64,000 nucleotides of DNA, taken from Rhizomicrobium sp. (lineage in GTDB: Bacteria > Pseudomonadota > Alphaproteobacteria > Micropepsales > Micropepsaceae). The position numbers and the translations under genes are program-made. The stretch is from NCBI GenBank assembly GCA_037200385.1, contig JBBCGL010000001.1, positions 2,369,418 through 2,433,417 of the forward strand. Direction: 5' to 3'. The notes beneath the pieces are model-generated. The model was given only the letters and a program-made list of their open reading frames with translations. It was not told the DNA's origin and did no database searches. Positions 38,567 through 54,532 of the stretch are shown here, piece after piece (within the stretch, counting starts at the first letter, position 1; every line of letters starts with the position of its first letter).

Positions 38567-38641
38567 GGGCGCGTAGCTCAGCGGGAGAGCACTCCCTTCA
38601 CACGGGAGGGGTCACAGGTTCAATCCCTGTCGCGCCCACCA
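38567..38641 (+). tRNA. tRNA-Val (anticodon CAC)
   Basis: GGGCGCG acceptor stem, TAGCTCAG D-arm, ctccc-TTCACAC-gggag anticodon arm, GGTTCAAT T-loop, encoded CCA. Confidence 0.96.
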
Positions 38642-38926: not shown

Positions 38927-40747
38927 TTAGGTCGTCGCCTGGCCGGTCGCGGCGTCGTCAAGGACCGGCAAATCGCGAACGTAACGCACTGCCAGCCAAA
39001 AATAGCCGCCTCCTTTGACCAATGTTTCCGTCGGCAGCTGATCATACCCGTATCTGCTCTCCTCCACGATCAGGATTTGGACCATCGGAGATTCAAACGA
39101 AGTGGAATTGCCAATCGTACTCGTCCAGTATGTGCCGTCATCGCCGCAACCGTAATAGGTCAAGTCCGAAAGCGCGGTGCCCATCGCAGACCCCGCGAGT
39201 TCGAGCGCGGGACTATTCAGCCCGGAGGCTATCAGTTGATCGAAATCGAGCGTATCGGTCAGCGTCTGCCAGTCGGCCTGCGTCGGCAATCGCCAGCCGC
39301 CGGTGGACTGCAGGGAATTTGCGTCGTCATAGCGGTAAAGGCGCCCATACACCGCCACATTATCGGAGGAACCGTTGGGAGGAGCCGCGTTGGGCGCGTC
39401 CCAGGTCAGATTTTGAGTCATCCAGAGCAGCTGGCCGATCGGCGTCGCGGGATAGACCGTTTGGTCTCGGGTATCCAAGAAGTAACACGCCCGGACGGAC
39501 ACCCTGTATTGCTGCGAGTTGATCTGGATGCCGTTCTCGTCATAGCCGCACAGGGTGACGCTCATCGAGCCGTCCTGCGTGATGCCGGGCACCGTCACGG
39601 TGCCTGAATCCGTCGCGCCGGAGCTTTGCGTGTTGTAGGACCGATCGATCGCCGTGACTGTCTGGTCGCCCAGGACATAGCAGAGCTTCACCCTGGCGAC
39701 GAAGTTCATCATCCAGGTGAATCCGATCTCCAGCTCGTCGGTCGGACTGTTGGCCAATAGTTCGATCGTGGGGCTCGTGAATTTGTACACGCCGCGGTCT
39801 TCGGGGCCGACGAGCTTGTCGATGGGCAGAAAGAAGAGCCATGGATTGTAGGCGATGGTGTCGGTCTGCTGGAAATTGATGAACTGCAGCATCAGCTGGG
39901 TCATGTTTCCCGCGGCGGTCAATGCGACGATGTTCTGAAATTGAAAGGTAACGTTGGCGCCGGAGCCGGTGCCGATCGGATCGGCCGCCGGCGCCGTCAG
40001 CGTCCAGCTCAGGTCGCCCGCATTCCACGCGGAAGTCCAGGCGTTGCCTTCCGTGCTGGTGATGGAGAGGCTGGCGCCGACAATGACGTCGGTCGGCGTC
40101 AGCGAGCCATCGTCGGAGCCATAGGTGAAGCTGGCGATGACCTGGGGCGGCGAATCGGGGTTTCCGTTCCCCGTAAAGATGGGCGCATTGCTTTGATTGT
40201 TGATGTTGAAGATGAGCGTGTTCTGCAGGTAAGGCTGAATGGTGGAAACGTACACTTCGTTGAAGCCGTCAGGCTGAAAGGTGACGGCGAGCACGCTCGA
40301 AAGATCCGGATTCTCGACCACGGGCGCGGATTGCAACGCGATTTTTGCCGTCAACTGCTTGGGCAAGCCGGACGCTTCGAACTCAAGGCTGAAAAAATAG
40401 GTTCCGGCCGGTCCGACGCTCTGGATCGCGCAGAGCGTGCAGGTCAGGGTCGCACCGTTGGACCATATGTAATCGCTCGAGCCCGTGCTGACCGCAAAGC
40501 CATTCCCATTCTGCGTGGCGGTCAGTCCCGCGGGAACGGTCAACGTCGCGGCCTGAATCTGCGTCACGGTGAAACAGCGGGGAGCGACCAGCGAAAACGC
40601 ATCCCCATTTGCTGGCAAGTCGATATCTTGGCCCGTGCCGTTCGTCAGAACCATGGTGAGATTCGCGGCGACGTTGATGTACAGCACGGCGGCCGGTTCC
40701 GTGCTGACCGCCGGATTGGTGATGGTAAAGGTGATGCTACTCGCCAT
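38927..40747 (-). CDS. Hypothetical beta-rich protein with C-terminal FISUMP (Fib_succ_major) domain
   Basis: The C-terminus FLDTRDQTVYPATPIGQLLWMTQNL...YGRLY...GWRLPTQADWQTL...YWTST matches the FISUMP pattern. The N-terminal ~420 aa is Thr/Asn-rich; no signal peptide. Confidence 0.8.
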   Translation of the reverse strand: MASSITFTITNPAVSTEPAAVLYINVAANLTMVLTNGTGQDIDLPANGDAFSLVAPRCFTVTQIQAATLTVPAGLTATQNGNGFAVSTGSSDYIWSNGATLTCTLCAIQSVGPAGTYFFSLEFEASGLPKQLTAKIALQSAPVVENPDLSSVLAVTFQPDGFNEVYVSTIQPYLQNTLIFNINNQSNAPIFTGNGNPDSPPQVIASFTYGSDDGSLTPTDVIVGASLSITSTEGNAWTSAWNAGDLSWTLTAPAADPIGTGSGANVTFQFQNIVALTAAGNMTQLMLQFINFQQTDTIAYNPWLFFLPIDKLVGPEDRGVYKFTSPTIELLANSPTDELEIGFTWMMNFVARVKLCYVLGDQTVTAIDRSYNTQSSGATDSGTVTVPGITQDGSMSVTLCGYDENGIQINSQQYRVSVRACYFLDTRDQTVYPATPIGQLLWMTQNLTWDAPNAAPPNGSSDNVAVYGRLYRYDDANSLQSTGGWRLPTQADWQTLTDTLDFDQLIASGLNSPALELAGSAMGTALSDLTYYGCGDDGTYWTSTIGNSTSFESPMVQILIVEESRYGYDQLPTETLVKGGGYFWLAVRYVRDLPVLDDAATGQATT

Positions 40748-40783
40748 GGCAGCTCTCCGATCGAAGCTTAGGGTCGCGCCGCT

Positions 40784-43700
40784 TCACGTGGCCGGATCAG
40801 GGGTTAGATCTAGCCATCCTTCCAGAACCGTTTGCGGCGAGTATCCGAAGACGGCGTTCTCGGTGACGGCGTCGGGCGACAGCGAAATCGGAGCCGAGGC
40901 GCCCGGAGCGATCCAGCTCCAGTCATAACCGTTCTCCTGCGGCAGCGGCACCGCGAGGCCGGAGGCCGGCGAGAGCACGGGCGCGGTGAAGAAGGTCGCC
41001 GCCAGCTTGCTCATGGCGGAGCTGTATTGGTCGGGCGGGATGGAGAGGCTAACCACGGGCAGAACCCCCGTCGTCGCGTGCACCTGTGTCCGCGGGTCAA
41101 CCAACATCGTCAGCGTCGTGGGCGCGTTCAGCGTCAGCAGAAGGGCCGGATCGGCCGCCGAGGGCTGCACCACGCCGTTGCCTCCCTCCGCCGGCGCCGC
41201 CTGCGAATAGAAGGAGCCGTAGGCGCCACCGGGCGTCTGCTCGACGAAATAGCCGATCAGTCCGTCGTTCATATCGACCGGATCGCCCAGCCGCGCTGGG
41301 AACTGTACCGCGCCGAGCGCTGCGGTGCTGTACTGTTGCCGCTGGGCGGGGCTGTACTGCTGCCGCTGGCTGGGGTTGTTGGGGTCGGGGCTGGCCGCGC
41401 TCGCCAAGACGTCCTGCGTGAAAGGAGCGGCCTCGGCGCTGTTGTCCTGGCTGAGCGGCAGCAGATTTCCGCTGGTCTCGAGCCCCAATGTACAGCGCAC
41501 GATGGCCAGCGGGCGACCCAGCAGGACGGCGAGCGCGGCATCCTGCGCGGAACCGGCTGGCTGGCTGAAGGCCGCGGCGCCGACGATGGCGGTCAGCAGA
41601 TCCTGCACGAAGCCGGTGCTTTGGCCGTAGACGTGATTCATGAACTGGGAAAGGAAAGGGTTGACGGCGGCGGTGTCGGTCGTGATCGGCGTGCCGTAGG
41701 GTTCGAGATTGCCCGGCGCGGTGCGATAGACGACCGCCCCGTGCTCGATGCCGATGGAGCCGATCGACGAGCCGTCGGCATCATAGAAGAAAAGGCTGTC
41801 GTTCAGGTCGTTCGGCATCAGCCAGCCGCACACGGGCGAGGTGGCCGGATGCGAATTCGACTCCACCACGGAGGCGGACGTGTCGCCGAAGGTCCGGGCG
41901 GAAAGCCACCGGAACCAGAGCCGGGTTGGGGTGAGGAGGCGCGGGGGAAGATAGGCTTGCCCCTGATGCGCGACATCATCGGCATTCGGCTGCAGGCTTG
42001 CCGCGACGACCGGCGTCAGGCTCACGCTGCCGGCGCCCGTCGCGAACTGCATCGTTTGGCCGAAGACGTCCACGATCTGCAGCGACCGCAGCGCCAGGAA
42101 GCCGGCGCGCAACGGCCCGAAATCACGGCCGGCGGAAAGGGGCTTCACGGCGTTGAAGGCGCCGTCGTACCAATTGTCTCCGGTGAGCAGGGCGGCCGCG
42201 CTGATATCGGAGGTGACGAGATCGACGCCCTGCCCGCCCGGGTTGCTCACCAGGTTCTCCACCGGGATTTGCGGCAGGAAGGCCTGCTGGATCTGCTGCG
42301 CGCCCAGACCGCTCATCGCCTGCGAGACGAAGTTGCGGCTATTATAGGCGGCTTGCGCGACCTGAAGCGACGGATCGGCTTCGGTATCCGACGGAAAGGC
42401 GTTCAGATAAGCCTGGATCTGCGAGCCCAGGCTGTAGGCCGCCCGCGTCGAAAGCGCCGCCGAGCCGGAGTAGCCGTAGAGTTGATCGGCCGGCTGTGTG
42501 AAGCCGTTGGACGTGACATAGGCATAGTCCGCACCGTCGTCGTCCAGCGTGAAGAACTGCGTGAGGTTGCCGGCGCTGTAGGCCGGCCAAGAATTGGCGT
42601 CCTTGCCCTGCATCTGCAAGGGCGAGAACCAGGCATTCCAGATCATGAAGATCGGCAGGAACGGGTCCGAACGGGAGGCACTGAGATTGGGCACGGCGCA
42701 CTGCGCCATCCAGCCGACCGGGTCCGGCGGATAGGCGGTGCCGCCAGCATTGCTCCAGGTGAAGGTCAGGGCCATCGGCGCATCAACGGACTGGGAAGGA
42801 TTCGGCGCCACCGACGGCGGCGGCGCGCGCAGCCAAGCGAACAGACCGGCGCCCGGCCCACCGTCCTGCGGACTGAGGCCACCCTGTGCAGCTTGAAGAG
42901 CGGCGACGAAATCCGCCGGCGAGGCAGTCGCGGGATTCGCATCGCCACCCACGGCCGCCATGGCCTGCTGCACCACGGTGGCCAACATGGGGATCAGCAG
43001 AACCGCCTCGGTGATCAAGGCCTGCACATCGGCTTGCGCCGGGGTGCCGGCGAGGACGGTCGTCAGCCCGCCCCAGGAAAGGTTGGGGAGGTCGGTCGTC
43101 TTTTCCGATCCGCTTGCGGCGAGCGTCGTCAGCAATTGCCCACTGGTCCGCACCGCGATCGTCGGTCCCGGCCCGTTGCGCTGCGCGCGCTGCAGCTGGG
43201 ATCCTTCGGCAAGCAGCACCGGGTCGGTCGGCATGCAGAAGGATGGAGCCGGCACCGCTCGCAGGCTCCATCCCGGAGCTGTCAACGCCGCGACCAGACT
43301 AGCGTAGCAACCATAGACGGCCCCTGCAAAGCTGGTCGTGGATGCGGGCGGTGCCGGCGCGACGGCGTTGCCGCTCCCATCCAGCTTGTACTGCAGGAGG
43401 CCCACCTGGTTGCCCGCGCCCTGAACGGCGTTGAGCTCGCACGGACCGTTGGTGTCGAGGAAATTGGTGAGCTCCTCGAACGAGTAGGCCGGCTGGTTGG
43501 GGTCGATCGTGAAGAACATCGTGACGTACCGGTACCAGTCCATGAACAGCTGCTTACGCTGCAGCTCGACCGAGAAGCGATCCTGGTCATAGGCCTTCTG
43601 CGCCGCGTTGAGCGCGGCCAGCAGCGCCGCTATGTCGTCTTGCAGGTCGGCCGCCCTGCCGGGCTCCGGGGCCTGGCCCTGGGGTGATGAAGGCTGCACG

Positions 43701-44992
43701 AGCTCCCAGATCCAGCCGCCGAATTCGGTCGCGAAGGCTTTGCCGTGCAGGTCTTCGTCCATCTGCGCCGGATGGGCAGTGCCGTTCTCGACGTTTTGGA
43801 CGAGGCCCAGCTGGAGCGCGTTGAGCAGATATTCGTAGTCATCGAGCGCCGCGGGAACGGCCCCCGCGCCGGCGAGATCGTTCCGCAGCAGCGCCGAGAG
43901 GGCTTCGGTGGTCGTGTTGCCGATCGCCACCTCGCCTTGGCCCCGCCACACCGCCGGCGTCGTCGTCGAGGTGCTGGCGAGAAAGCCGCCGTTCTGCTGC
44001 GCGACGGCCGTGTCCCAGACCAGCTCCTGCATGATCCCCGCAACCAGGGTTTGCGACGGAACGGCGAGGCCGGCGATGGACTGGGTGGGATCGAGCCCCT
44101 GCAGCTGCCAGCCGAACTGCTGCGTCACGATGCTGTCGAGGATATCGGACGGCGCCAGGGTCGGCGCGACACCCTGATCGGAGCACTGCGTCGCGTAGGC
44201 GGTCCAGGCTTCGGTGACGGTCTTCTGGAGACCGGCCAGCGGATCGGTGCCCGTCGGATCGATCCAGCCGATCACCTGGTAGCTCGCCTTGAAGTGGATC
44301 GCCGATCCCGCCGCCAGCACCGTGCCGACGTTTTGGCCATTCCCGATCGATTGATCGGAGAAGTCGTCGAAGAATCCGAAGACGCTGCTGCACTCCGGAT
44401 AGAAGCTGGAGAAGCCCGGGCCCACGAAGCCGACCGAAGTCAGCATGCAGGGGTTGCCGTCCTCGTCGTTATAGTCGGGCAGAAACTGCGCCGGCCCGGT
44501 GGCCGGGCCGTAGACGCGTTGGCGTCCCATATAGAGATAGGGCTGCTGCGTCGATGCGTCGGTCAGCGGCACCGAAACACACGGCGACGACGGCGCGGCG
44601 ACCGCGAGATAGTCGCTCTCGACCAGGAAGGCGGCGGCGGTCGGAGCGCTCCAACCGCCATCCTGGAAGAGACTGAAGTAGCGGATCACCAGCCAGCGAT
44701 TAGGCACCTGCGGGAAGACGACGGGGCCGCCGGCGGAGAGCTGGCTGCCGCGGCGGAAGAAGTCGGGCAATTCCCAGTGCAGATGCACGCCGATGTCCAA
44801 GGTCTCGGCGGGCGAGTCGTTGTCCTCGAGCGGGCGCGCGATGGCGTCGCCGGTGCTGGCCGTGGTGGCGTCGGCGACCCACGGTATCTTCTCGAACACC
44901 GCCGTCCGGCCCTTGAAGTTCGGCGCGATCTGCGTGTTGTCGGCCAGACTCACGCGCAGCGCGGCGATGTTGAGCGGAACTATGGCCGTCAT
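40784..44992 (-). CDS. Large hypothetical protein (1402 aa) of the DUF6603-associated cluster
   Basis: ATG at 44992 overlaps the upstream stop (ATGA). Blocks GVHLHWELP, PNRWLVIR, PLRAG..LQIVDVFGQ, LPPRL, GRPLAIV, HATTGVLP. Confidence 0.85.
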   Translation of the reverse strand: MTAIVPLNIAALRVSLADNTQIAPNFKGRTAVFEKIPWVADATTASTGDAIARPLEDNDSPAETLDIGVHLHWELPDFFRRGSQLSAGGPVVFPQVPNRWLVIRYFSLFQDGGWSAPTAAAFLVESDYLAVAAPSSPCVSVPLTDASTQQPYLYMGRQRVYGPATGPAQFLPDYNDEDGNPCMLTSVGFVGPGFSSFYPECSSVFGFFDDFSDQSIGNGQNVGTVLAAGSAIHFKASYQVIGWIDPTGTDPLAGLQKTVTEAWTAYATQCSDQGVAPTLAPSDILDSIVTQQFGWQLQGLDPTQSIAGLAVPSQTLVAGIMQELVWDTAVAQQNGGFLASTSTTTPAVWRGQGEVAIGNTTTEALSALLRNDLAGAGAVPAALDDYEYLLNALQLGLVQNVENGTAHPAQMDEDLHGKAFATEFGGWIWELVQPSSPQGQAPEPGRAADLQDDIAALLAALNAAQKAYDQDRFSVELQRKQLFMDWYRYVTMFFTIDPNQPAYSFEELTNFLDTNGPCELNAVQGAGNQVGLLQYKLDGSGNAVAPAPPASTTSFAGAVYGCYASLVAALTAPGWSLRAVPAPSFCMPTDPVLLAEGSQLQRAQRNGPGPTIAVRTSGQLLTTLAASGSEKTTDLPNLSWGGLTTVLAGTPAQADVQALITEAVLLIPMLATVVQQAMAAVGGDANPATASPADFVAALQAAQGGLSPQDGGPGAGLFAWLRAPPPSVAPNPSQSVDAPMALTFTWSNAGGTAYPPDPVGWMAQCAVPNLSASRSDPFLPIFMIWNAWFSPLQMQGKDANSWPAYSAGNLTQFFTLDDDGADYAYVTSNGFTQPADQLYGYSGSAALSTRAAYSLGSQIQAYLNAFPSDTEADPSLQVAQAAYNSRNFVSQAMSGLGAQQIQQAFLPQIPVENLVSNPGGQGVDLVTSDISAAALLTGDNWYDGAFNAVKPLSAGRDFGPLRAGFLALRSLQIVDVFGQTMQFATGAGSVSLTPVVAASLQPNADDVAHQGQAYLPPRLLTPTRLWFRWLSARTFGDTSASVVESNSHPATSPVCGWLMPNDLNDSLFFYDADGSSIGSIGIEHGAVVYRTAPGNLEPYGTPITTDTAAVNPFLSQFMNHVYGQSTGFVQDLLTAIVGAAAFSQPAGSAQDAALAVLLGRPLAIVRCTLGLETSGNLLPLSQDNSAEAAPFTQDVLASAASPDPNNPSQRQQYSPAQRQQYSTAALGAVQFPARLGDPVDMNDGLIGYFVEQTPGGAYGSFYSQAAPAEGGNGVVQPSAADPALLLTLNAPTTLTMLVDPRTQVHATTGVLPVVSLSIPPDQYSSAMSKLAATFFTAPVLSPASGLAVPLPQENGYDWSWIAPGASAPISLSPDAVTENAVFGYSPQTVLEGWLDLTPDPAT

Positions 44993-45870
44993 GCCGGCCC
45001 TCGCTTGACGAAGCTGACCTGCGCGACGCCGAGAGTCATCTCGAAGCCCATCTCCGCAGAGGTGATCGGATTGCCCGTCGCAATGTTGATGGCCTGCTGA
45101 AACGCCGTCATCATCATGCTGCGCGGCTGCGCACTGCGCAGGCAACCGGAGACGCCGGCAAGCGGGACCGATCCGGTAATGTCCAGCGGCGGTCCCGGCG
45201 CGAAGGTCCACACCGTCTTGGTCGCGGTGACGGGCGTGGTGCCGGGATCGAAGCTGTCCAACCCGAAATGCAGGGCCTCGGGCGCCTCATGCAGGTCGAA
45301 CCGCTGTGCGTCGCCATCCACCAGACAGATCATGGTGTCGGACTGCGACCCAAGCTGCTCCAGCCTTAGGATGGTCAGCGGCGTGCCGGCATCCCCTCCC
45401 TGACTGTAGGCGTTCACGCCCAGGCCGGGAAAATCCCGCACCACGGAGGATCGAAGCAGGAAGCCAGACACTAGGTTCGAGGCGACGGTCGCCGTTGCAA
45501 CCCCGAGCTTGCGCGCGCGCATCCGGCCCGCATTTGCCCGGAAGGCGGCCAGGGCCGCCGCGACAGCGACGTGCTCTACGGCCGGAAGCCCTGCCGCCGT
45601 GGCGACGGACAGGTTGCGGCCGATGCTCATGGCGCCGTCCACGAGGGCGTCGATCCAGCTCGGATTCAGGTAAAAGAAGCGGATCGACTCGGGCGGGAGC
45701 ATGCGCTCGTCCGGCACGAGATAGTTCAACGGGACACCCTTCAGCAACGCGAGCCGATTAAGCCAGTCGACGATCGTGTCCGGGACCGTGACGCCGCCGA
45801 AAACCGCCGGATCGGACAGGGCCTCGCCGATGCGGCGTCTCAATTGCCGGCGCGAGAAACGGGCCTTCAT
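44989..45870 (-). CDS. Hypothetical protein (293 aa) of the DUF6603-associated cluster
   Basis: ATG at 45870 overlaps the upstream stop. VPLNYLVPDERMLPPESIRFFYLNPSWIDALVDGAMSIG; GFLLRSSVVRDFPGL. Confidence 0.85.
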   Translation of the reverse strand: MKARFSRRQLRRRIGEALSDPAVFGGVTVPDTIVDWLNRLALLKGVPLNYLVPDERMLPPESIRFFYLNPSWIDALVDGAMSIGRNLSVATAAGLPAVEHVAVAAALAAFRANAGRMRARKLGVATATVASNLVSGFLLRSSVVRDFPGLGVNAYSQGGDAGTPLTILRLEQLGSQSDTMICLVDGDAQRFDLHEAPEALHFGLDSFDPGTTPVTATKTVWTFAPGPPLDITGSVPLAGVSGCLRSAQPRSMMMTAFQQAINIATGNPITSAEMGFEMTLGVAQVSFVKRGPA

Positions 45871-47330
45871 CGATCGCCCCGATCGGCCAGACGGCGGACG
45901 GTGTGGGAAAGAAGCGCTCGCGTCGTCGCGGGAGCTGCGGACTTGGGGGTCCGCGCCCAATTCCCTGACAGCACGGCCTGGAACGATTCGGCAAGCAGCG
46001 CGTCCTCCACCGTTGCGATGGCGGCCGCTGTGAGCCCGTTCTTCCAATTATACAGCGCCACGGAAAAAGCTTTGTCCTGCAGCGCGAGCAATCGTCCCAG
46101 CGTCCATGACGCAGCGTAAGACACGTCCAGCATTCCGCTCGTCGGATCGAAAACCAGGGCTTGGTCGGACGATGCAAAAGGCAGCGCCAACGCCGGAGCG
46201 GTATTCTGATAGGGCAGGCACGGGCCACGGTACCAGCAGACGGTCTTACTGCCGTCGCGCAAGCTCTCGTTCAGCGGGACATAGCCCATGCCCAGCGCCG
46301 CCGCCGTCGCAACGTTGCCGCCGACATACGGCACCTGGAGCATGGTCTGCGCGGCATCGGCGGTGTCGCCCGCAGGCCGGCCGTTGAGCGCCTGCACGCG
46401 ATCGGCGAAGCCGCTATTGTCGCCGGAGGTGAAGAACGTCCAACTCTGCAGCACGGCCAGGCGCAGCGTCGTGCCGGTGAAGTCGGAACCGGACGGCGCT
46501 CCTCCCTGCTCGTCGGTCGGCAGAAAACTTTCCAGTCCTTCCAGGGAGACCAGATAGGCGTAGGTCTTGCGACCGGCACCGTCGCTGCCCATCTGCGGCA
46601 GGCGCGTGCCGAAGACGACCGACACAGTCCCTGTAGGAACGCCCGCGCCGGGTTGCTGCCCCGTCGGCTTGTTGCACAGGTTCACGCGCCTAACGTGCGC
46701 CGTAAGCCCCAGATCGGCGGCGGTGGGAGCGATCTGCCAAAAGAGGCTCAACGGAATGTCGAGCACCTGCACGGGACTGGCGGTGGTCTGGTTCAGCTCC
46801 AGACCGCTCGTATCGATCGCCTGCCAGAAATAGGAATAGGCGGACGCGGGCAGGCTGCTGGCGGCGTATGCGTTCGTCGCAAAGAGGTCGCCCACCGTCG
46901 CCGGCTGGGGCGCGAGCAGAAGTCCTGGATGGGCCGCCACGTCGTCGGCATCGAGCAACAGGATGGTGAGCCAGGTGGACACGTCGGCCGGCGGCGCGCC
47001 GGCCGTGACGTCCTTGTCCGCTGGCCCGCCGATCCGGCGACTCCACGGCAAAGTCGGCTGGGAGAAGACCACATGCGGCAGCACATTGGTGAATTCGCCG
47101 ACCGCGCCGTCGGGCGGAAAGACGGACTGCACCTGCGTGGCCGGCGACCGCAACGTGAAACGGTCGCCGAGCACGGCAAAGGCGTAGCTATGCGACATCG
47201 GATCGTCGCTGATCCCGGTGATGCGCTGCGCGACGGTGAGCGTGTAGTCGCCGTCGTCGAGGCCGGGCAGATGGTGCTGGATGAACGTCACGGTTTCGTC
47301 TTGCAGAGGGTCGGACATGGGCGTCGCCAT
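45867..47330 (-). CDS. Hypothetical protein (487 aa) of the DUF6603-associated cluster
   Basis: Starts 3 nt after the DUF6603-like gene. LPHVVFSQPTLPWSR, AYLVSLEG, VLQSWTF, WYRGP, AAxxLG-type motif ASWTLGRLLA. Confidence 0.85.
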   Translation of the reverse strand: MATPMSDPLQDETVTFIQHHLPGLDDGDYTLTVAQRITGISDDPMSHSYAFAVLGDRFTLRSPATQVQSVFPPDGAVGEFTNVLPHVVFSQPTLPWSRRIGGPADKDVTAGAPPADVSTWLTILLLDADDVAAHPGLLLAPQPATVGDLFATNAYAASSLPASAYSYFWQAIDTSGLELNQTTASPVQVLDIPLSLFWQIAPTAADLGLTAHVRRVNLCNKPTGQQPGAGVPTGTVSVVFGTRLPQMGSDGAGRKTYAYLVSLEGLESFLPTDEQGGAPSGSDFTGTTLRLAVLQSWTFFTSGDNSGFADRVQALNGRPAGDTADAAQTMLQVPYVGGNVATAAALGMGYVPLNESLRDGSKTVCWYRGPCLPYQNTAPALALPFASSDQALVFDPTSGMLDVSYAASWTLGRLLALQDKAFSVALYNWKNGLTAAAIATVEDALLAESFQAVLSGNWARTPKSAAPATTRALLSHTVRRLADRGDR

Positions 47331-47333
47331 CGC

Positions 47334-50300
47334 TCAAATGCTCCCCAACAGGCCCACGGCGGGCCAATCCCAAAGCGCGGTCGTCGTCGACATGGCGGTC
47401 ACATCGACGGCAGCCGAGGCCCATGTCGCGAAGCCGTTGCTCGTCAGATCGTCGAGGATGGCCGTCCGTTGTTGCGCCACCCAGGAATCGGCGAGCGAGG
47501 ACAGGACGTGGTCGACATTGGGGAGCTGCTCGCTCGCGCTGCCGGACACCGCGATCGACAGGCTCGCAGCACCGGGAGGACCCGATACCCTTCCTACGAC
47601 TTCGTAGTCTGTGGATACCGCCGCGCTGCCATCGGTGAAGCCGGTCTGCGGCGGATCCTCGCGGAACAACAGGTCGGATACCGGGATGGCGGACAAGGTG
47701 TCCGGCGTCTGCGGGATTGGGCTGATCAGGAAGCCCGTGAGCGCGAACGGCACCATGGGCGGGTCGTTCGGCTGGCGACCTGCCCCCTTGTCGGGTGCCC
47801 ATAGCGCGGCGCTCGAAGCCATCAGCATGGGCTGGACCGAGACGCTCGTGACCGGCACCCCTGCGGCGGTCATCAGCGTGACGGTGTGGAAGCTTTGAAT
47901 CGAATTCAGGTGCATCGGCGCGATCGCCAGATCAGGGCACCAGACGGCGTCGGGGTGGTCTTGGTCGACGCCTCCATAAGTCGGCGTCCCGGCCGGCAGC
48001 GACAGGTAGGGATCGCCCGCCGCCGGCGCGACGTTGTAGCTCGTGACGGTGTTGGGGATGACGTAGACGGTCCCCGCGGTAGGGTTGGTGGTCCATTCGG
48101 CGCAGTTCGCCGGAACGGCGCTGCTGGTCAGGAGGCTGAACGTGTCGGGATCCAGGATCCAATCGTAGACCGTGCCATCCGCGGCGGTCTGGCCGCTCGC
48201 GATGAGGCCGGATGGCACGCTCGCCAGTACGACGCCGGCGTCCGTCGTCGGCGTGTCGTCCGTCGCGGCCGACCGGCCGGTTCTCAGCAGGCCAGTCCGG
48301 GGCGACGATGAGCCTGTCGGCAGGAAAGAGGATTTGAACCCGCTCCAAGCCAGAGGCGGCGCCTGCGCGGGAGCCGAGGAGCCGAACGCAACGGTGAATG
48401 AGACGACGTCCAGATGCACATGAGCTTGGCCGCCGAATGACGGACCCCAAATCTGCAGATCCGCGCCGACCTGCACTTTGAGCGTGTGCAGTCCCAGATT
48501 GAGCGCACAGCCCAGTGCCACATAGGCATCGGCCTGATAGCTCAAGGGCGACCACGCGATCAGGAAGTCGGCGCCGGCATTGAACCAGGCCTTGACCGCA
48601 CCCGAATTCCAGGTAGCCGACATCGCTACGCCGCCCATCATCATGGCGGGCAGGAGCGCAAAATAGGCCGAGCCGGTGACCTGGAAGGCCCCAAGGCCGA
48701 AATTGATGGCGAGCCGAGGCACGGCCGGGTAGCCGTCCGGCGGGGTGAATCCGGGATTGTAGCCGCCCACCGTCACAACGCAGTGGCCGGCGTTGGCGCC
48801 GCTTGTCCAGATATTGAAGGCAAAGCCGCCCGTCGGCCGGCAGAAGCTGCCGAAGAGATACGACGCCGGCGACAGCTTGCCTTGCACCGAGAGCTGGCCG
48901 CTCGTGGCGCCGAACGACGCCGCCATGTCGATCTCGATATAGGCGGCCGGCTCGCCGAGCGGCAACGACATGGCGCAGCTACCGATCAACCCGAATTGGA
49001 GGTCGACCCCGAAGGCGACCGTCAGGGCTGCAAAGCCCTCGATCATCTCGAACGAGGTGAACTGGACCCCCGCCGCGACCCAATAGGCTCCGGCCTGCGG
49101 CGGGAAGTTGCTTTGCAGCTGCGGCAGCAGCGTGGTCATGGTCGCGGCGGGCGTGGCGCCCGGCAGAGGCGCGTTCTGCGGCAGCAGGAAATAGCCCGAC
49201 AGGGTGGCTAGCGTGGGCGCCACCAGCGCGGTGTTGACGCCGAAGCCGGCGGCGAGCCCCGTCACGAAGAGGAAGGGCGGCCCGCCCAACGGCACGTCCA
49301 CCATGCCGTATAAAAAGAAGGACGCCGGCGGTCCGGGGACGTAGCCGCCCATCGCCCGAAGACCGAAATTGGCCACTTGCACGCTGACTTCGCCGAAATA
49401 GCCCGGCTCGGCGCCCGTGGCGCGCAGAAAGCCGCCGGCGATCGAGAGCGGGCCGCTGGCGAATCCCAGCGAAAGGCCCTGAAGCCCAAAGGCGACCGAC
49501 AGATCGCTCCCGACAGAGGCGCCGGGCAGCGGCAGCGGAAACACGACGGTCAATCCGTCGAGGTCGAGCGAGAAGCCTCCCAGTGCGAAGGCGGCCACCA
49601 AGCCGAACGTCGCGCGGCCGCTCGCATCGTAATCCAGGCCGATCTGCTGCAACGTTACGGGGCCGAAGCTCTTGCCGATCCGGATCCAATGCACCGGGCT
49701 CGCCGGGCTGGACGTGTTCGTCGCGGAATAGGGAACCGGCAACGCCGGATCGGCGGGCGGTGTTGCCGCCGGCAGCGAAAGCGGCAAGGCGAAGGTGCCC
49801 AGCGGATTCCCCGACGGGTCCAGCAGGCTGGCCGTGAGGGAGAAGCCCGCGCCCGGCGCACCCAGCGTGGTGCCGCCGATGATGGCGTAGGTGGATGCTT
49901 CCGGCGCGCTCGCGTCGCTGCGCGTATAGAGCGGATTGGATGCGGCGGCGACTTGCGGGATCGCGAACGCGACCGGTGTCCCGCCGACCGGCACGCTGGA
50001 ATAGGTGAAGCCGAGCCGGTCGAGCGTCAGTTGGCCGAAGCCGGGGACGTCGCCGACAAGCGGCAGGCTGGAGAGCCGCAGCGCGCCCTCCGACGGCGCG
50101 AAGGTGGCACCCACCGCGAAGAGACCCGACGTATCCGAGGGGGCAGCCGGCGCCGTGGCCGCGAAGCAGATCATGGTGTAGCCGTTGCCGTCGACCGTCA
50201 GGCCGAACTTCGCCGCCGCGCCGAACTGCGTGCTGGAGGTGCCGGAGGACGGCGCGGTGTGGACCACCTGCCCGACGACATAGTCGATCGCCGCGTCGAG

Positions 50301-51002
50301 ATTCAGCTCCGGCGGCAGCTGGACCGTGACGCCGAACTGGCTTGCAACCAGCGCCAGGAATTCGCCGAGCGGCACGATTGCGCTCTGCACGCTGCCGTCG
50401 AAGGTGAACGTGCTGCCGTCGCCTGTCTTGTCGACGGTGGCCGCCAGCGCGACGGGGACGCCGGCGAGAAGAGCATTGAGTCCGACCTGCAGGTTCACTG
50501 CGGTCGCAGCGCCACCGGCCACGGTGTCCGTGGCCTTGAAAGCGATGGCCAGGTTGTCGATGGCGAGCCAGCGTACCAGGGGCGCCGGCAGGGGGATCGC
50601 GCCTTGCGTGGGATCGGCGCTTTCGACCTCGACGCTGATGTTGAAGAGCTTTTTCGTCGCGCTCGAGCTGATCTCGAATGCCTTCACCTGGACCAGCAGC
50701 GCGTTGTCCGAGGTGAACGCCTCCGCGTCGAGGAAGTCGGAGAAGGCGCTTGCGATGTCGCCGATGCCGGGCGCGTTGCGCAGGCTGCCGACTCCGGCAC
50801 CCAGTTGCTGCTCGACGAGGCCGATCAGATCGCCCAAGTTGAATTGGAGCGGCCCGCAAGTGTGCTTCAGGTCCAGCCGGAACAGAAACCCCGCGGATGT
50901 CCCGTCGGCTGCATCCGCCGTATCGGCGACCAGCTCCGACAGCAAGGGGACGGCAACGTCGCCGACGCACAGATGCACCGAGAAACAAAAACCAAACGAC
51001 AT
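47334..51002 (-). CDS. DUF6603-like domain protein (1222 aa), amphipathic beta-strand rich
   Basis: Region ~49690-48380: KSFGPVTLQQIG, LGGPPFLFVTGLAAGFG, YWVAAGVQFTSF, VGGYNPGF..YPAVPRL, AYFALLP.MMMGG. I recall these as DUF6603 motifs; not HMM-verified. Confidence 0.75.
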   Translation of the reverse strand: MSFGFCFSVHLCVGDVAVPLLSELVADTADAADGTSAGFLFRLDLKHTCGPLQFNLGDLIGLVEQQLGAGVGSLRNAPGIGDIASAFSDFLDAEAFTSDNALLVQVKAFEISSSATKKLFNISVEVESADPTQGAIPLPAPLVRWLAIDNLAIAFKATDTVAGGAATAVNLQVGLNALLAGVPVALAATVDKTGDGSTFTFDGSVQSAIVPLGEFLALVASQFGVTVQLPPELNLDAAIDYVVGQVVHTAPSSGTSSTQFGAAAKFGLTVDGNGYTMICFAATAPAAPSDTSGLFAVGATFAPSEGALRLSSLPLVGDVPGFGQLTLDRLGFTYSSVPVGGTPVAFAIPQVAAASNPLYTRSDASAPEASTYAIIGGTTLGAPGAGFSLTASLLDPSGNPLGTFALPLSLPAATPPADPALPVPYSATNTSSPASPVHWIRIGKSFGPVTLQQIGLDYDASGRATFGLVAAFALGGFSLDLDGLTVVFPLPLPGASVGSDLSVAFGLQGLSLGFASGPLSIAGGFLRATGAEPGYFGEVSVQVANFGLRAMGGYVPGPPASFFLYGMVDVPLGGPPFLFVTGLAAGFGVNTALVAPTLATLSGYFLLPQNAPLPGATPAATMTTLLPQLQSNFPPQAGAYWVAAGVQFTSFEMIEGFAALTVAFGVDLQFGLIGSCAMSLPLGEPAAYIEIDMAASFGATSGQLSVQGKLSPASYLFGSFCRPTGGFAFNIWTSGANAGHCVVTVGGYNPGFTPPDGYPAVPRLAINFGLGAFQVTGSAYFALLPAMMMGGVAMSATWNSGAVKAWFNAGADFLIAWSPLSYQADAYVALGCALNLGLHTLKVQVGADLQIWGPSFGGQAHVHLDVVSFTVAFGSSAPAQAPPLAWSGFKSSFLPTGSSSPRTGLLRTGRSAATDDTPTTDAGVVLASVPSGLIASGQTAADGTVYDWILDPDTFSLLTSSAVPANCAEWTTNPTAGTVYVIPNTVTSYNVAPAAGDPYLSLPAGTPTYGGVDQDHPDAVWCPDLAIAPMHLNSIQSFHTVTLMTAAGVPVTSVSVQPMLMASSAALWAPDKGAGRQPNDPPMVPFALTGFLISPIPQTPDTLSAIPVSDLLFREDPPQTGFTDGSAAVSTDYEVVGRVSGPPGAASLSIAVSGSASEQLPNVDHVLSSLADSWVAQQRTAILDDLTSNGFATWASAAVDVTAMSTTTALWDWPAVGLLGSI

Positions 51003-51132
51003 CTCTGCACTCGGCTGGATAGGACGAAAGAATGATGTCTGATGACCAGGCGATCAAATGCAAACCACGGAAGAAATCGTGATCTTTTTGTGCTACTGAA
51101 GTCGTGCACGGACCTTCTTATGGAGCTCCCAA

Positions 51133-51164
51133 TCATTTTAAATACGTCAATTTAAATACGTCAA
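51133..51164 (-). promoter_or_regulatory. Candidate promoter for the island operon, overlapping a 14-bp tandem repeat
   Basis: Plus strand (tttaaatacgtcaa)x2 at 51137-51164. On the minus strand: TTGACG, 18 nt spacer, TAAAAT, in an AT-rich divergent spacer. Confidence 0.55.
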
Positions 51165-51256
51165 TCGCCTTCACTACAAATTTCGGGATAGCCATCTTGG
51201 AAATTAGGTTATGTTTCGTATAAGTATTTTTGGCTGGCAGACATCGAAGTATCCAT

Positions 51257-52225
51257 ATGAAGATCGTATTCTGGAATATTCAGAAAGCGTCGGAAGGCAA
51301 GCTCAAGAAGAATCTGAACTCCGCTATCATCGGGTCCAATGGCTTGGGTAACAACGTCGCGGACTATGTCGTCAAGATCGTTCTGGACGACAAGGTCTGG
51401 GCGACCGCGACGGGCGTGCCTGCCGATGCATTCGTCATCATCGAGCTCGTCAGCGGCGGCAGCGACAAGGGGGGTGACGCCACCGGTACTTGCCTGCCCG
51501 CGCTCACGAAGCTCGAGGGCGCGTTGAATGCGGCCGCCGTTGCGGCAAATTTAAACCCGTTGCCGACTTACAGGCACATTGTCCCCAAGATCACCGGACA
51601 TCGGGAGACCGTTGGCATCCTGTACAACGCGGCCACGCTGACTTATGTGAGCGACGCGGTCATGCGGGATACGGACAACAAATTCCTTCCCAAACGCTCG
51701 CCCCTCTGGGCGAAATTCACCGTGGGATCGACAACCACGGCGCTGAACCTGATCGGCGTGCACGGTCCCACCTCGAAACCAAGCTCGGACATCTATACCG
51801 CGGCGGTCTCCTACACGAACAAGCTGGCCGACATCGCGCAAATCGCGCAGACCGGCTTTATCCCCAAGCAAGCCACCCTGATCGGCGGCGACTTCAATTG
51901 CGACGGCGCTAACACCTATTCGAAGAGCAACAACGGCAAGAACGCCAAGATCAGCGCCTTCGCCGACCTGATCGCTTGCGCCTACACCGTGCCGTTGCTC
52001 ACCGGCACCAAGACCAGCCTGCTGCAAAGCGCCGATCAATCCACCAAACCGCCCGGCTATCTCAGCCAGCCCTACGACAATATCGTGTGCGGCGCACTAC
52101 CAGGAGCGACAGTGAAGGTGATCGATCTCTGCCAGAATGCCCCGACCTGGAGCAAGAACGCCGTGGCGACGTTCAACGCCGCCCGAACCGTCAGCGATCA
52201 CCTACCGATTAGCGTCAACTGGTAA
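51257..52225 (+). CDS. Endonuclease/exonuclease/phosphatase (DNase I-like) family protein
   Basis: MKIVFWNI, IIE, GVHG, GGDFN, YDNI and SDHLP catalytic motifs; no signal peptide. Confidence 0.88.
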   Translation: MKIVFWNIQKASEGKLKKNLNSAIIGSNGLGNNVADYVVKIVLDDKVWATATGVPADAFVIIELVSGGSDKGGDATGTCLPALTKLEGALNAAAVAANLNPLPTYRHIVPKITGHRETVGILYNAATLTYVSDAVMRDTDNKFLPKRSPLWAKFTVGSTTTALNLIGVHGPTSKPSSDIYTAAVSYTNKLADIAQIAQTGFIPKQATLIGGDFNCDGANTYSKSNNGKNAKISAFADLIACAYTVPLLTGTKTSLLQSADQSTKPPGYLSQPYDNIVCGALPGATVKVIDLCQNAPTWSKNAVATFNAARTVSDHLPISVNW

Positions 52226-52249
52226 GCCGCAGCTCTCCGGACGTAGATC

Positions 52250-53380
52250 ATGCCGAACTGGACTTTCGCCGACGACTACGCCGCGCGCTACCCCGCGCTG
52301 GCCAGCTCCGTTCTCAGCCTGCTTGTCTTTTCCGATCATTCGCTGACGGGCTCGGCCTTTGCCGGAACGCTAGACGTGGCCGCGAGCGGGGTCGCGCTGG
52401 AAACGCTGGGCCAACTGAGCGGCGCAACCGCCATCCCCCTGTCCGGCAGTGTCAGCGACGACGACACCACGCTGACCGTGACGCTGGCCTCAACCACCGG
52501 CGCGTTCGGGCTCGACGCCATAAGCGCGATCCCGCTGCTCGGTCCGAAGATCACCGCGGTCGGCATGTCCGTGTCCACGATCGCCGCAGCGAGCGATAGC
52601 GCCGATACCGGGCCGGGTACCGACGATCTCAGCTTTTCGATCGCACTCTCTCTGGGCGGCGACACGGTGACGCTCGCCGGCGCGGTACCGATGAACGGCG
52701 GCCTCTGCACGATCGAGGTCGAGACGACCGGAATCGCGATCGGCATCGACGATCTCGACTTCCTGACCAGCAAGGTCGGCGCGGGCTGGTTTCCCGCCGA
52801 CCAGCTCGGTCCGTTCTCGCAGACCTCGTTGACGCTGATCGGCCTTTCAGTGGACTTGTATCTTGCGCTGGACCCGTTCTCGATCGCCTTCGCCTCTGTG
52901 GCCATCGGCATCGGTTTCACGGGCCAGGCACTGATTGAGAACGTGCTCTATCTAAGCCCGCTGGCGGTTTGGGTCACCATCGCCGCCCCAGACGGCGCGC
53001 CCACCTTCACTTGGGCCCTCATGGGAACGCTCGCGCTCTGCTCGCATCTGAGGCCCGGCAATTATCAGAATCCGGATCTCGCGCTCGACATGAGCATGGA
53101 CCTGAACAATTTCGCCGTTTCGGCCACCCTGGAGAACGAGCAGTCGATCACGGTCAACACGGCGTTGCAGGACTTGGGCGTCGGCAGCATCGGCCTTGGC
53201 GACGACATCATCCTGACCACTCTCGAGATGGATATTACCGTCGACAGCGGCGGCAAGGCGACCGGCTTCGACCTCGATGTCGGCATGTCGGGCAGCCTGG
53301 GCCTGTTCAGCGTGCTGACGGTGGAGAAAATGGAACTGAAGATGTCTTATCTGGCGGACGGAAATGCCCCGTCTAGATAA
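52250..53380 (+). CDS. Hypothetical acidic beta-strand-rich protein (376 aa)
   Basis: 24 nt after the nuclease. Alternating hydrophobic/polar strands, about 8 Lys+Arg against many Asp/Glu. Confidence 0.75.
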   Translation: MPNWTFADDYAARYPALASSVLSLLVFSDHSLTGSAFAGTLDVAASGVALETLGQLSGATAIPLSGSVSDDDTTLTVTLASTTGAFGLDAISAIPLLGPKITAVGMSVSTIAAASDSADTGPGTDDLSFSIALSLGGDTVTLAGAVPMNGGLCTIEVETTGIAIGIDDLDFLTSKVGAGWFPADQLGPFSQTSLTLIGLSVDLYLALDPFSIAFASVAIGIGFTGQALIENVLYLSPLAVWVTIAAPDGAPTFTWALMGTLALCSHLRPGNYQNPDLALDMSMDLNNFAVSATLENEQSITVNTALQDLGVGSIGLGDDIILTTLEMDITVDSGGKATGFDLDVGMSGSLGLFSVLTVEKMELKMSYLADGNAPSR

Positions 53381-53652
53381 CGCACGCCGCAAAACTCCTA
53401 TTCGTGGACATTGCCGGAGGCGCTGACAGAGCTGGTTGCCGCCGACATCGCCGGTGTGCGCGGCTAGCTAGCTCGAGCAAGTCTTGGTGAGCACTGCGCC
53501 GTTCTGATGCAAGCCACCGGTTAAGCGTACATGCAACGGAGGCGTGCAAACCGCTGAATGATATTGTGAAGAACGTCCGCCGAACAACCCGTGGAAAAGA
53601 CGTGGAAACCGCATCCTACAACCAAAAAACCGGGAATTCTGCGGACGCAACC

Positions 53653-53698
53653 CCCTTCACACGGGAGGGGTCACAGGTTCAATCCCTGTCGCCCACCA
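53653..53698 (+). repeat. att site: duplicate of the tRNA-Val 3' half
   Basis: cccttcacacgggaggggtcacaggttcaatccctgtcgcccacca matches 38594-38641 except for a 2-bp deletion in gcgccc. Confidence 0.92.
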
Positions 53699-53824
53699 TT
53701 TTGCGGCCTGTCTTGCGCATCGGCGCGCTGCGCATGGCCTCGAAATAGTGGAAAAGAGCCCATCAAGCCTCGAACCTTTCGGAGCCGGTGCAGACCGGTT
53801 CGAAACACGAAAAGGGGCGATGCC

Positions 53825-54532
53825 ATGAAACTTCCATTTTACAAGCTGTTGGCGGCATATTCGGCGGCGATCACCACGCTGCTGATCGGCCAGCAGGTCG
53901 GCCAGGCTGTCGGCGCACCCGACAAGACGAGCTTCGGCGAGATCGACGTGCAACGGATCAACATCCGAGAAAGGGACGGGACGCTGAGAATGGTCGTCTC
54001 GGACCGCGACCGCTTTCCCGGTCTTATCTGGCGCAACAAGGACTATCCGCATACCAGCCGCACCAATGTCGCCGGCATGCTGTTCTTCAACGATGAAGGT
54101 ACCGAGAATGGCGGGCTCACCTTCGGCGGCGCCAATGACGGCAAGGTGCATAGCTTCGGCCATCTGAGCTTCGACCAATACGAACAGGACCAGGTCGTCA
54201 CTTTGGAGCAAGCCGAAAGCGACGGTCGCCGCACGGCAGGGCTGACGATCGTCGACCGGCCCGACAAATCGATGAACATCCCCGGGATTCAAGACATCGT
54301 GACATTGCCCGAGGGGCCGGAGAGAACGGCCGGCATTGCAAAGCTCGTCAGCGAAGGGGTCGTCGGCAATCACCCGCGCGTCTTCCTGGGCAAGCAGGAC
54401 GGTGCGTCGATGCTGACGCTCAAGGACGAGGATGGCCACGACCGGCTGCGCCTGACCGTGTCGAAGGATGGAAAAGCAGCCATCGAATTCGTCGATGCGA
54501 CGGGCAAGGTGACAAAGACGGTCACGCCCTAG
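53825..54532 (+). CDS. Hypothetical exported or membrane-anchored protein
   Basis: ATG at 53825 behind AAGGGG. Hydrophobic N-terminus, then EIDVQRINIRERDGTLRMVVSD...MLFFNDEGTENGGL. Confidence 0.75.
   Translation: MKLPFYKLLAAYSAAITTLLIGQQVGQAVGAPDKTSFGEIDVQRINIRERDGTLRMVVSDRDRFPGLIWRNKDYPHTSRTNVAGMLFFNDEGTENGGLTFGGANDGKVHSFGHLSFDQYEQDQVVTLEQAESDGRRTAGLTIVDRPDKSMNIPGIQDIVTLPEGPERTAGIAKLVSEGVVGNHPRVFLGKQDGASMLTLKDEDGHDRLRLTVSKDGKAAIEFVDATGKVTKTVTP

Follow-up and report, generated by a model that had tools for sequence, protein, structure and literature searches.

The 64-kb window of Rhizomicrobium sp. DNA analyzed here (the whole stretch of 64,000 nucleotides, in which all coordinates below are positions) raises the question of what is made by five large, co-oriented genes that a first-pass annotation had singled out as a candidate new multi-protein system. 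We letter these genes A to E, call two adjoining genes U1 and U2, and use m161 for a ~161-aa gene found at related loci. These five genes form the core of a self-contained cassette that is spread by horizontal transfer and that makes up the whole cargo of the island holding it here. As judged from the sequences, the cassette most likely encodes a large multi-subunit protein complex of undescribed kind, equipped with an enzyme that cuts DNA or lipid and with a targeting protein that binds sugars. Its core proteins belong to large families, which span about ten phyla and are transferred as a unit, and no paper, solved structure or curated family explains their role. The five genes are:

A, 47334-51002, minus strand: 1222-aa scaffold protein with an m161-like N-terminal domain, a giant beta-meander that includes DUF6603, and a C-terminal alpha/beta domain
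B, 45867-47330, minus strand: 487-aa core protein
C, 44989-45870, minus strand: 293-aa core protein
D, 40784-44992, minus strand: 1402-aa core protein of an orphan family
E, 38927-40747, minus strand: 606-aa targeting-type protein, with a ~420-aa beta-rich N-terminal part and a C-terminal FISUMP (C-type-lectin-like) domain

Their sizes and common strand are exactly those of the open reading frames (ORFs) first described, and the junctions are reproduced to the nucleotide: a 3-nt gap between A and B (TGAGCGATG), ATGA overlaps at both B/C and C/D, and a 36-nt gap between D and E, inside which lies a GGAGAG ribosome-binding site. A, B, D and E are acidic (pI 4.05-4.8), and D is as Lys-poor as had been estimated, with 12 Lys in 1402 residues. 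Hydropathy and inspection, made without a dedicated predictor, revealed no N-terminal signal-like, twin-arginine or transmembrane segment in the operon proteins, in agreement with the earlier statement that none has a Sec or Tat signal. Two other statements stood only in part. The absence of a recognizable catalytic motif holds for A through E and fails for the adjoining U1, which has a full catalytic set of the endonuclease/exonuclease/phosphatase (EEP) fold, and the five-gene unit, although its genes are real, extends to seven genes with U1 and U2 in a tRNA-Val island.

The core is conserved in content and order far beyond Rhizomicrobium. A survey in which one genome per species was scanned recovered 51 loci with relatives of D, and by their record titles these belong to about ten phyla: Acidobacteriota, Bacteroidota, Pseudomonadota (alpha, beta and gamma), Actinomycetota, Verrucomicrobiota, Armatimonadota, Eremiobacterota, Sumerlaeota, Cyanobacteriota and Bacillota. 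Of the 43 loci that have sufficient upstream DNA, 40 show A, B and C ahead of D in the fixed order A-B-C-D, which bears out the annotation's statement that the first four genes recur together. Its description of the fifth gene as variable has to be revised, since 37 of 47 loci have an E-like gene after D; this gene is conserved, though fast-evolving, within its subfamily. Relative to the window proteins, A to D are 40-50% identical, U1 and U2 ~35%, and E 28-32%. The B/C and C/D junctions fall mostly between -4 and +7 nt across loci, indicating that translational coupling is itself conserved. We show, then, that A (with its U2 and m161 pieces), B-C and D are co-inherited as a translationally coupled set of fixed order. 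A few copies of the cassette are carried by actinomycete megaplasmids, and its neighbors in other genomes are ordinary metabolic genes.

How the components relate to one another can be read from genes that are joined in some lineages and separate in others, in three independent pairings: m161 with A, U2 with a long form of A, and B with C. The two pieces that belong with A are:

N-terminal ~165 residues of A, 50508-51002, minus strand: counterpart of the free-standing ~161-aa gene (m161) of other loci
U2, 52250-53380, plus strand: 376 aa, acidic, the split-off N-terminal domain of the A scaffold

The 161-aa protein of Mucilaginibacter finds a match by tblastn at 50529 on the minus strand, with 38% identity. 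The ~161-aa gene stands free just upstream of A in 13 loci and is fused to A in the window and in one further locus (L045). At three loci (L002:3848-7576, L014:3682-7407 and L024:3737-7459) the ~161-aa gene and A are in frame, with one stop codon and ~12 nt between them, an arrangement that could be a recent fission or, possibly, a programmed read-through. For U2, an alignment with hhalign matches residues 10-384 to the N-terminal extension of the long, ~1600-aa A proteins (probability 99.6%, E 2.2e-24). These long proteins are alignable with the window A from residue 507 on and, taken together with the homology to U2, this makes the long A a protein of U2-like, m161-like and DUF6603 parts. 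On this homology U2 is a separated piece of the A scaffold. Its possible role as an acidic inhibitor or immunity partner of the basic U1 was ruled out by the full-length homology to the N-terminal domain of long A. The third pairing is a natural B-C fusion, seen in many proteins; in one of these, P0271, a B part (44% identity, probability 100%) is followed by C. By a Rosetta-stone argument, the core may thus be regarded as three super-polypeptides, U2-m161-A, B-C and D, and we infer that the fusions are the strongest available support for a physical complex.

The anchor of the operon is the DUF6603 domain of A, as the first-pass annotation had it:

DUF6603 domain of A, 48126-49679, minus strand: residues 442-959, PF20248, E 3.9e-120

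The profile scores 402.2 bits against A (cut-off 27) and covers 500 of its 502 positions, with 405.7 bits in the genome search, and DUF6603 is the sole domain in all 120 listed of the 439 homologues of A. A is a clear member of this Pfam family, which is a catalogue entry without function or paper; we found no mention of DUF6603, PF20248 or IPR046538 in the literature, and membership explains nothing of mechanism. A structural model of A (predicted local distance difference test score, pLDDT, 70.9 overall and 80-92 in the DUF6603 region, which is all long antiparallel strands) shows residues ~148 to ~874 as a succession of ~40 long antiparallel strands, with an alpha/beta domain after them. 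Compared with the PDB by Foldseek, the model resembles giant beta-barrels (Deinococcus SlpA/SDBC, the PapC and FimD ushers, LptD and porins) and the beta-sheet of ApoB100, with high probability and template-modeling (TM) scores of 0.10-0.14. This likeness, in BFVD no better than in the PDB, is a generic beta-meander likeness only (TM ≤ 0.14), and neither database holds a true fold match to the model. Repeating beta-groove lipid-transfer proteins of the AsmA/TamB/VPS13 type do not appear among its top 50 PDB matches. A is therefore predicted by the model to be a beta-meander of very large size, either a sheet or a barrel, that falls in no known family, in keeping with the beta-sheet scaffold that had been proposed as one component of the machine.

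The other core proteins are large families with no relatives among described ones. D has 298 full-length homologues at 40-48% identity, every one annotated as hypothetical, and its family alignment has ~190 invariant columns; single scans of 20 D homologues against Pfam at E ≤ 5 gave no consistent family. C belongs to a family of 3,394 representatives at 50% clustering, and about a quarter of its 150 best matches are proteins of ~575-900 aa with C at the C-terminus. The AlphaFold2 model of B (pLDDT 70.8) has a beta-sandwich core with C-terminal helices and no fold match in the PDB by Foldseek (best E 0.087). Searches of Pfam, NCBIfam, PADLOC and PHROG left B, C and D without a match, sequence and profile searches of the PDB with D, B, C and E found nothing, and searches of the ESM Atlas with D, B and C returned merely unnamed clusters or chance-level matches. 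The idea that B or C is a paralogue of parts of D was tested and rejected.

E offers a clue to what the complex may be aimed at. Its C-terminal domain exceeds both curated cut-offs for FISUMP-type proteins (TIGR02145, 64.1 bits against a cut-off of 41.65; PF09603, 44.4 bits against 33.9) and keeps the motifs W..NL, GRLY and GWRLP..DW, as in the FISUMP/DUF1566-type surface proteins of C-type-lectin fold, which include targets of diversity-generating retroelements (DGRs). Domains of this type are C-type-lectin-type ligand binders that are diversified by DGRs on surface proteins and on phage receptor-binding proteins, and typical members have a lipoprotein or secretion signal and conserved cysteines (PMC5758913). 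Unlike these, E has no lipoprotein or Sec signal, no conserved Cys (no column with Cys in at least 40% of 19 homologues) and no nearby DGR, and its domain sits on a ~420-aa beta-rich stalk that is specific to the cassette. The lack of a signal peptide and of conserved Cys in the family fits folding in the cytoplasm. Several loci have tandem E paralogues, two to five in number. In distant variants the position of E is taken by Laminin_G_3 proteins, lectins of the concanavalin A (ConA)-like kind, at least one of which has phage Tail Collar and Gp10_C domains; further loci have arrays of one to six Tail-Collar genes of ~160 aa each, and others add collagen-like Gly-repeat proteins and a double GT2-TPR glycosyltransferase (GT2-TPR or collagen-like genes occur in ~20 loci). 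Comparison of the loci shows an exchangeable slot for what reads as an aiming protein, filled here by E and elsewhere by proteins of the ConA-like lectin, tail-collar, Kelch-like or collagen-like kind.

At L002:18076-20670 and at 20 other loci lie genes for a pair of accessory proteins, ~439 and ~409 aa long, which form one cluster in an all-vs-all BLASTP comparison. The ~409-aa family has a ~170-aa head, long Gly-X-X or GGx triplet repeats and conserved Cys, and the repeats are collagen-like by composition and reminiscent of the glycine-rich tips of phage adhesins.

The enzyme of the cassette is encoded divergently from A:

U1, 51257-52225, plus strand: 322 aa, EEP-fold hydrolase

The longest U1 ORF begins at 51230 (TTG), but because all homologues begin at MKI(V/I)xWN the true start is probably the ATG at 51257. 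The EEP catalytic motifs WN, E, H, GDxN, DN and SDH are invariant or nearly so in 14 sequences, and recognition by existing models is faint, with Pfam EEP models under cut-off (E 0.04-0.96) and a U1 profile matching DNase gamma and DNase I at E 1.3e-3 to 5e-3. U1 occurs together with a free-standing U2, upstream of A, in 14 other loci, and most of the remaining loci have a metallo-beta-lactamase (MBL)-fold protein in place of U1. An adaptor domain common to the hydrolases and U2 or m161 was tested for and rejected. At L051:16195-18066, from Leptolyngbya sp. PCC 7375, a PF03497 (anthrax lethal-factor-type) protein (E 2e-17) is encoded between D and A of a cyanobacterial form of the cassette, and at L055:14898-16628 a 577-aa protein with a Hint (autoproteolytic) domain lies downstream of a distant A-B-C-D variant. 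Hint domains free C-terminal toxin modules in polymorphic toxin systems. The record label of L055, Bacteroides fragilis, is doubtful, given the presence of chemotaxis receptors and a GC content of 53%. The loci compared show that the enzyme slot, too, is exchangeable, with the DNase I-like EEP protein U1 here and an MBL-fold, lethal-factor-type or Hint protein elsewhere.

In Rhizomicrobium sp. all seven genes lie between a tRNA gene and a partial copy of it:

tRNA-Val(CAC), 38567-38641, plus strand: found by ARAGORN, left island boundary (attL side)
Degenerate copy of the 3' half of tRNA-Val, 53650-53698, plus strand: right island boundary (attR side)
Sigma-70-like promoter match, 51135-51164, minus strand: in the divergent intergenic region, ~130 nt upstream of A

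The copy matches the 3' half of tRNA-Val over 43 nt at 98% identity and spans the anticodon arm to the CCA end (51 nt with 1 mismatch and a 2-nt deletion in the acceptor stem). The ~15-kb island thus delimited holds E, D, C, B and A and the divergently transcribed U1 and U2, with no integrase and no further convincing ORF; it looks like an old, immobilized integration because the integrase is absent. That the seven genes are exactly delimited by the 51-nt tRNA-Val 3' repeat points to mobility. D is absent from all 24 searched genomes of other species of the genus and from all 16 searched genomes of the same class, and its nearest homologue overall is just 48% identical, from which the island is taken to be an old horizontal acquisition. 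The proposal of a mobile, conserved core is in this way upheld by the fixed gene order across phyla, the tRNA-Val island and the absence from congeneric genomes. Housekeeping genes flank the island (glmS and glmU on one side, amidohydrolases on the other). The sigma-70-like sequence agrees with the consensus at 10 of 12 positions and is the sole match in 15.3 kb, a consensus match only. GC content is 0.61-0.62 across U1, U2 and the divergent promoter region (50001-54000), compared with 0.63-0.68 in the rest of the island and its flanks. The host genome encodes BamA, indicating that the host has an outer membrane, and the collagen-like and GT2 accessory genes of sister loci were not found in it. 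The island is thus a naturally bounded, minimal, seven-gene version of the cassette.

What would such a complex do? Our tentative answer, to which we give somewhat less than an even chance, is that it serves conflict between organisms as a cytoplasm-assembled complex, aimed by a lectin and carrying the hydrolase as payload. The proteins would assemble in the cytoplasm, as the lack of signal peptides and of conserved cysteines suggests, A would supply a very large beta-sheet wall or barrel, E would bind a surface glycan of another cell or organism, and the hydrolase would be the active payload. Several observations weigh against this proposal. No export route, lysis cassette or secretion gene lies alongside the cassette. 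A DNA substrate for U1 is presumptive, the match to DNase I being weak (~20 bits). With U2 reassigned, the island shows no immunity gene for U1, a strange omission for a nuclease toxin if the enzyme is not sequestered. Finally, relatives of A or D are absent from 2.9 million viral contigs and 50,697 phage records, so that any analogy with tailocins is functional only. A phage origin of the cassette was itself rejected, at the sensitivity used, as these collections hold no copies.

The main rival to a conflict complex is an intracellular anti-phage defense of the abortive-infection type, in which the giant proteins would detect an infection and then set free or switch on the hydrolase (U1 or the MBL protein) in the producer. 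The absence of signal peptides from every component and of conserved Cys from E would suit such a system as well, as would the missing immunity gene, which abortive-infection systems also lack, the patchy distribution driven by horizontal transfer, and the location in a tRNA island. The MBL accessories of sister loci moreover match the PADLOC effector models LmuA (Lamassu), Avs1a and RTasMBL (DRT) at E 1e-10 to 1e-12. We nevertheless regard defense as unlikely, as none of the seven window proteins matches PADLOC, none of the modules that usually serve sensing or regulation, such as an ATPase, a helicase or STAND, is present in the cassette, and the proteins encoded in its ~12 kb are acidic, poor in Lys, rich in beta structure and structural in appearance. 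Its accessories (lectins, tail-collar and collagen-like proteins, glycosyltransferases) are atypical of cytoplasmic defense, and the neighbors in other genomes are ordinary metabolic genes. More improbable still is a structure of the producer's own envelope or surface, either an assembly of adhesive or S-layer-like kind or a beta-sheet machine that handles membranes or lipids, in which E would be an adhesin and the hydrolase would remodel envelope or matrix (eDNA or lipid). Its appeal lies in the local structural matches of A to giant membrane beta-barrels (SlpA/SDBC, ushers, LptD) and to the lipid-wrapping ApoB100 sheet, in the extracellular-like composition, in the GT2-TPR and collagen-like accessory genes of ~20 loci, and in the fact that EEP and MBL folds include lipid phosphodiesterases. 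The TM-scores of those matches, however, amount to a generic beta-meander likeness, a signal peptide is absent, and the cassette also occurs in the single-membrane Actinomycetota and Bacillota, which means that A is not an ordinary outer-membrane barrel of the producer. Nor is this a housekeeping structure, since not one of the 24 searched genomes of other species of the genus carries D. That the genes are selfish mobile cargo without joint function, or act independently, is disfavored and in our judgment very improbable, for their order is fixed over about ten phyla at just 40-50% identity, the 4-nt overlaps are conserved, the components show three independent kinds of fusion or fission, no reading frame is disrupted, and members of the C family number in the thousands.

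Comparison with known systems places the cassette beside several of them and within none. The seven window proteins had no match in PADLOC-DB 2.0. Neither Pfam nor PHROG detected sheath, tube, spike, gp25/gp6 baseplate or AAA ATPase families, and contractile-injection or phage structures were matched neither by the models of A and B in the PDB nor by that of A in BFVD. RHS/YD, TcB, TcA, VRP1 and SpvB gave no Pfam match at E ≤ 0.01, and no Tc or Rhs chain is among the top Foldseek matches of A. These searches gave no match to the identities that the first-pass annotation had named for comparison, Tc toxins, injection parts and phage tails. No kind of system described in the published literature accommodates the cassette. 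It could even represent a new class of machine, unrelated to phage tails, Tc toxins and secretion systems, in which a giant single-chain beta-sheet shell (U2, m161 and A) forms with B-C and D a cytoplasm-assembled particle that carries a nuclease-type enzyme without an immunity protein, is aimed by exchangeable lectins and spreads between phyla as a plug-in island, a picture we put forward as rather doubtful. Whichever account holds, the unit as now defined, with three super-polypeptides, an aiming slot and an enzyme slot, is a testable object toward a new conflict or surface machine.

Lamassu, Avs1 and DRT-associated MBL systems share with the cassette the MBL effectors (of its sister versions), the lack of an immunity gene and carriage on islands, but the cassette has no SMC, STAND or reverse transcriptase partner, and its core matches no PADLOC model. 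Tailocins and extracellular contractile injection systems (R-pyocin, Afp, PVC) resemble it as leaderless, mobile, multi-gene systems assembled in the cytoplasm, an assembly that for the cassette is presumed, and as systems that end the operon with a fast-evolving gene, a receptor-binding protein there and the lectin-type E here; the tail-collar, gp10_C and collagen-like accessory proteins of the cassette's relatives add to this likeness. They differ in the sheath, tube, spike, baseplate and AAA ATPase families, none of which was detected in the cassette. Tc (ABC) toxins likewise consist of a few very large, leaderless operon proteins with an exchangeable enzymatic part, and in both cases a large beta-sheet wall may enclose an enzyme that has no immunity gene; the cassette departs from them in its architecture, in having no RHS or Tc families and in its separate lectin protein. 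We speculate, as a possibility still short of even, that the cassette is a conflict device unrelated to tailocins and Tc toxins and analogous to them in logic.

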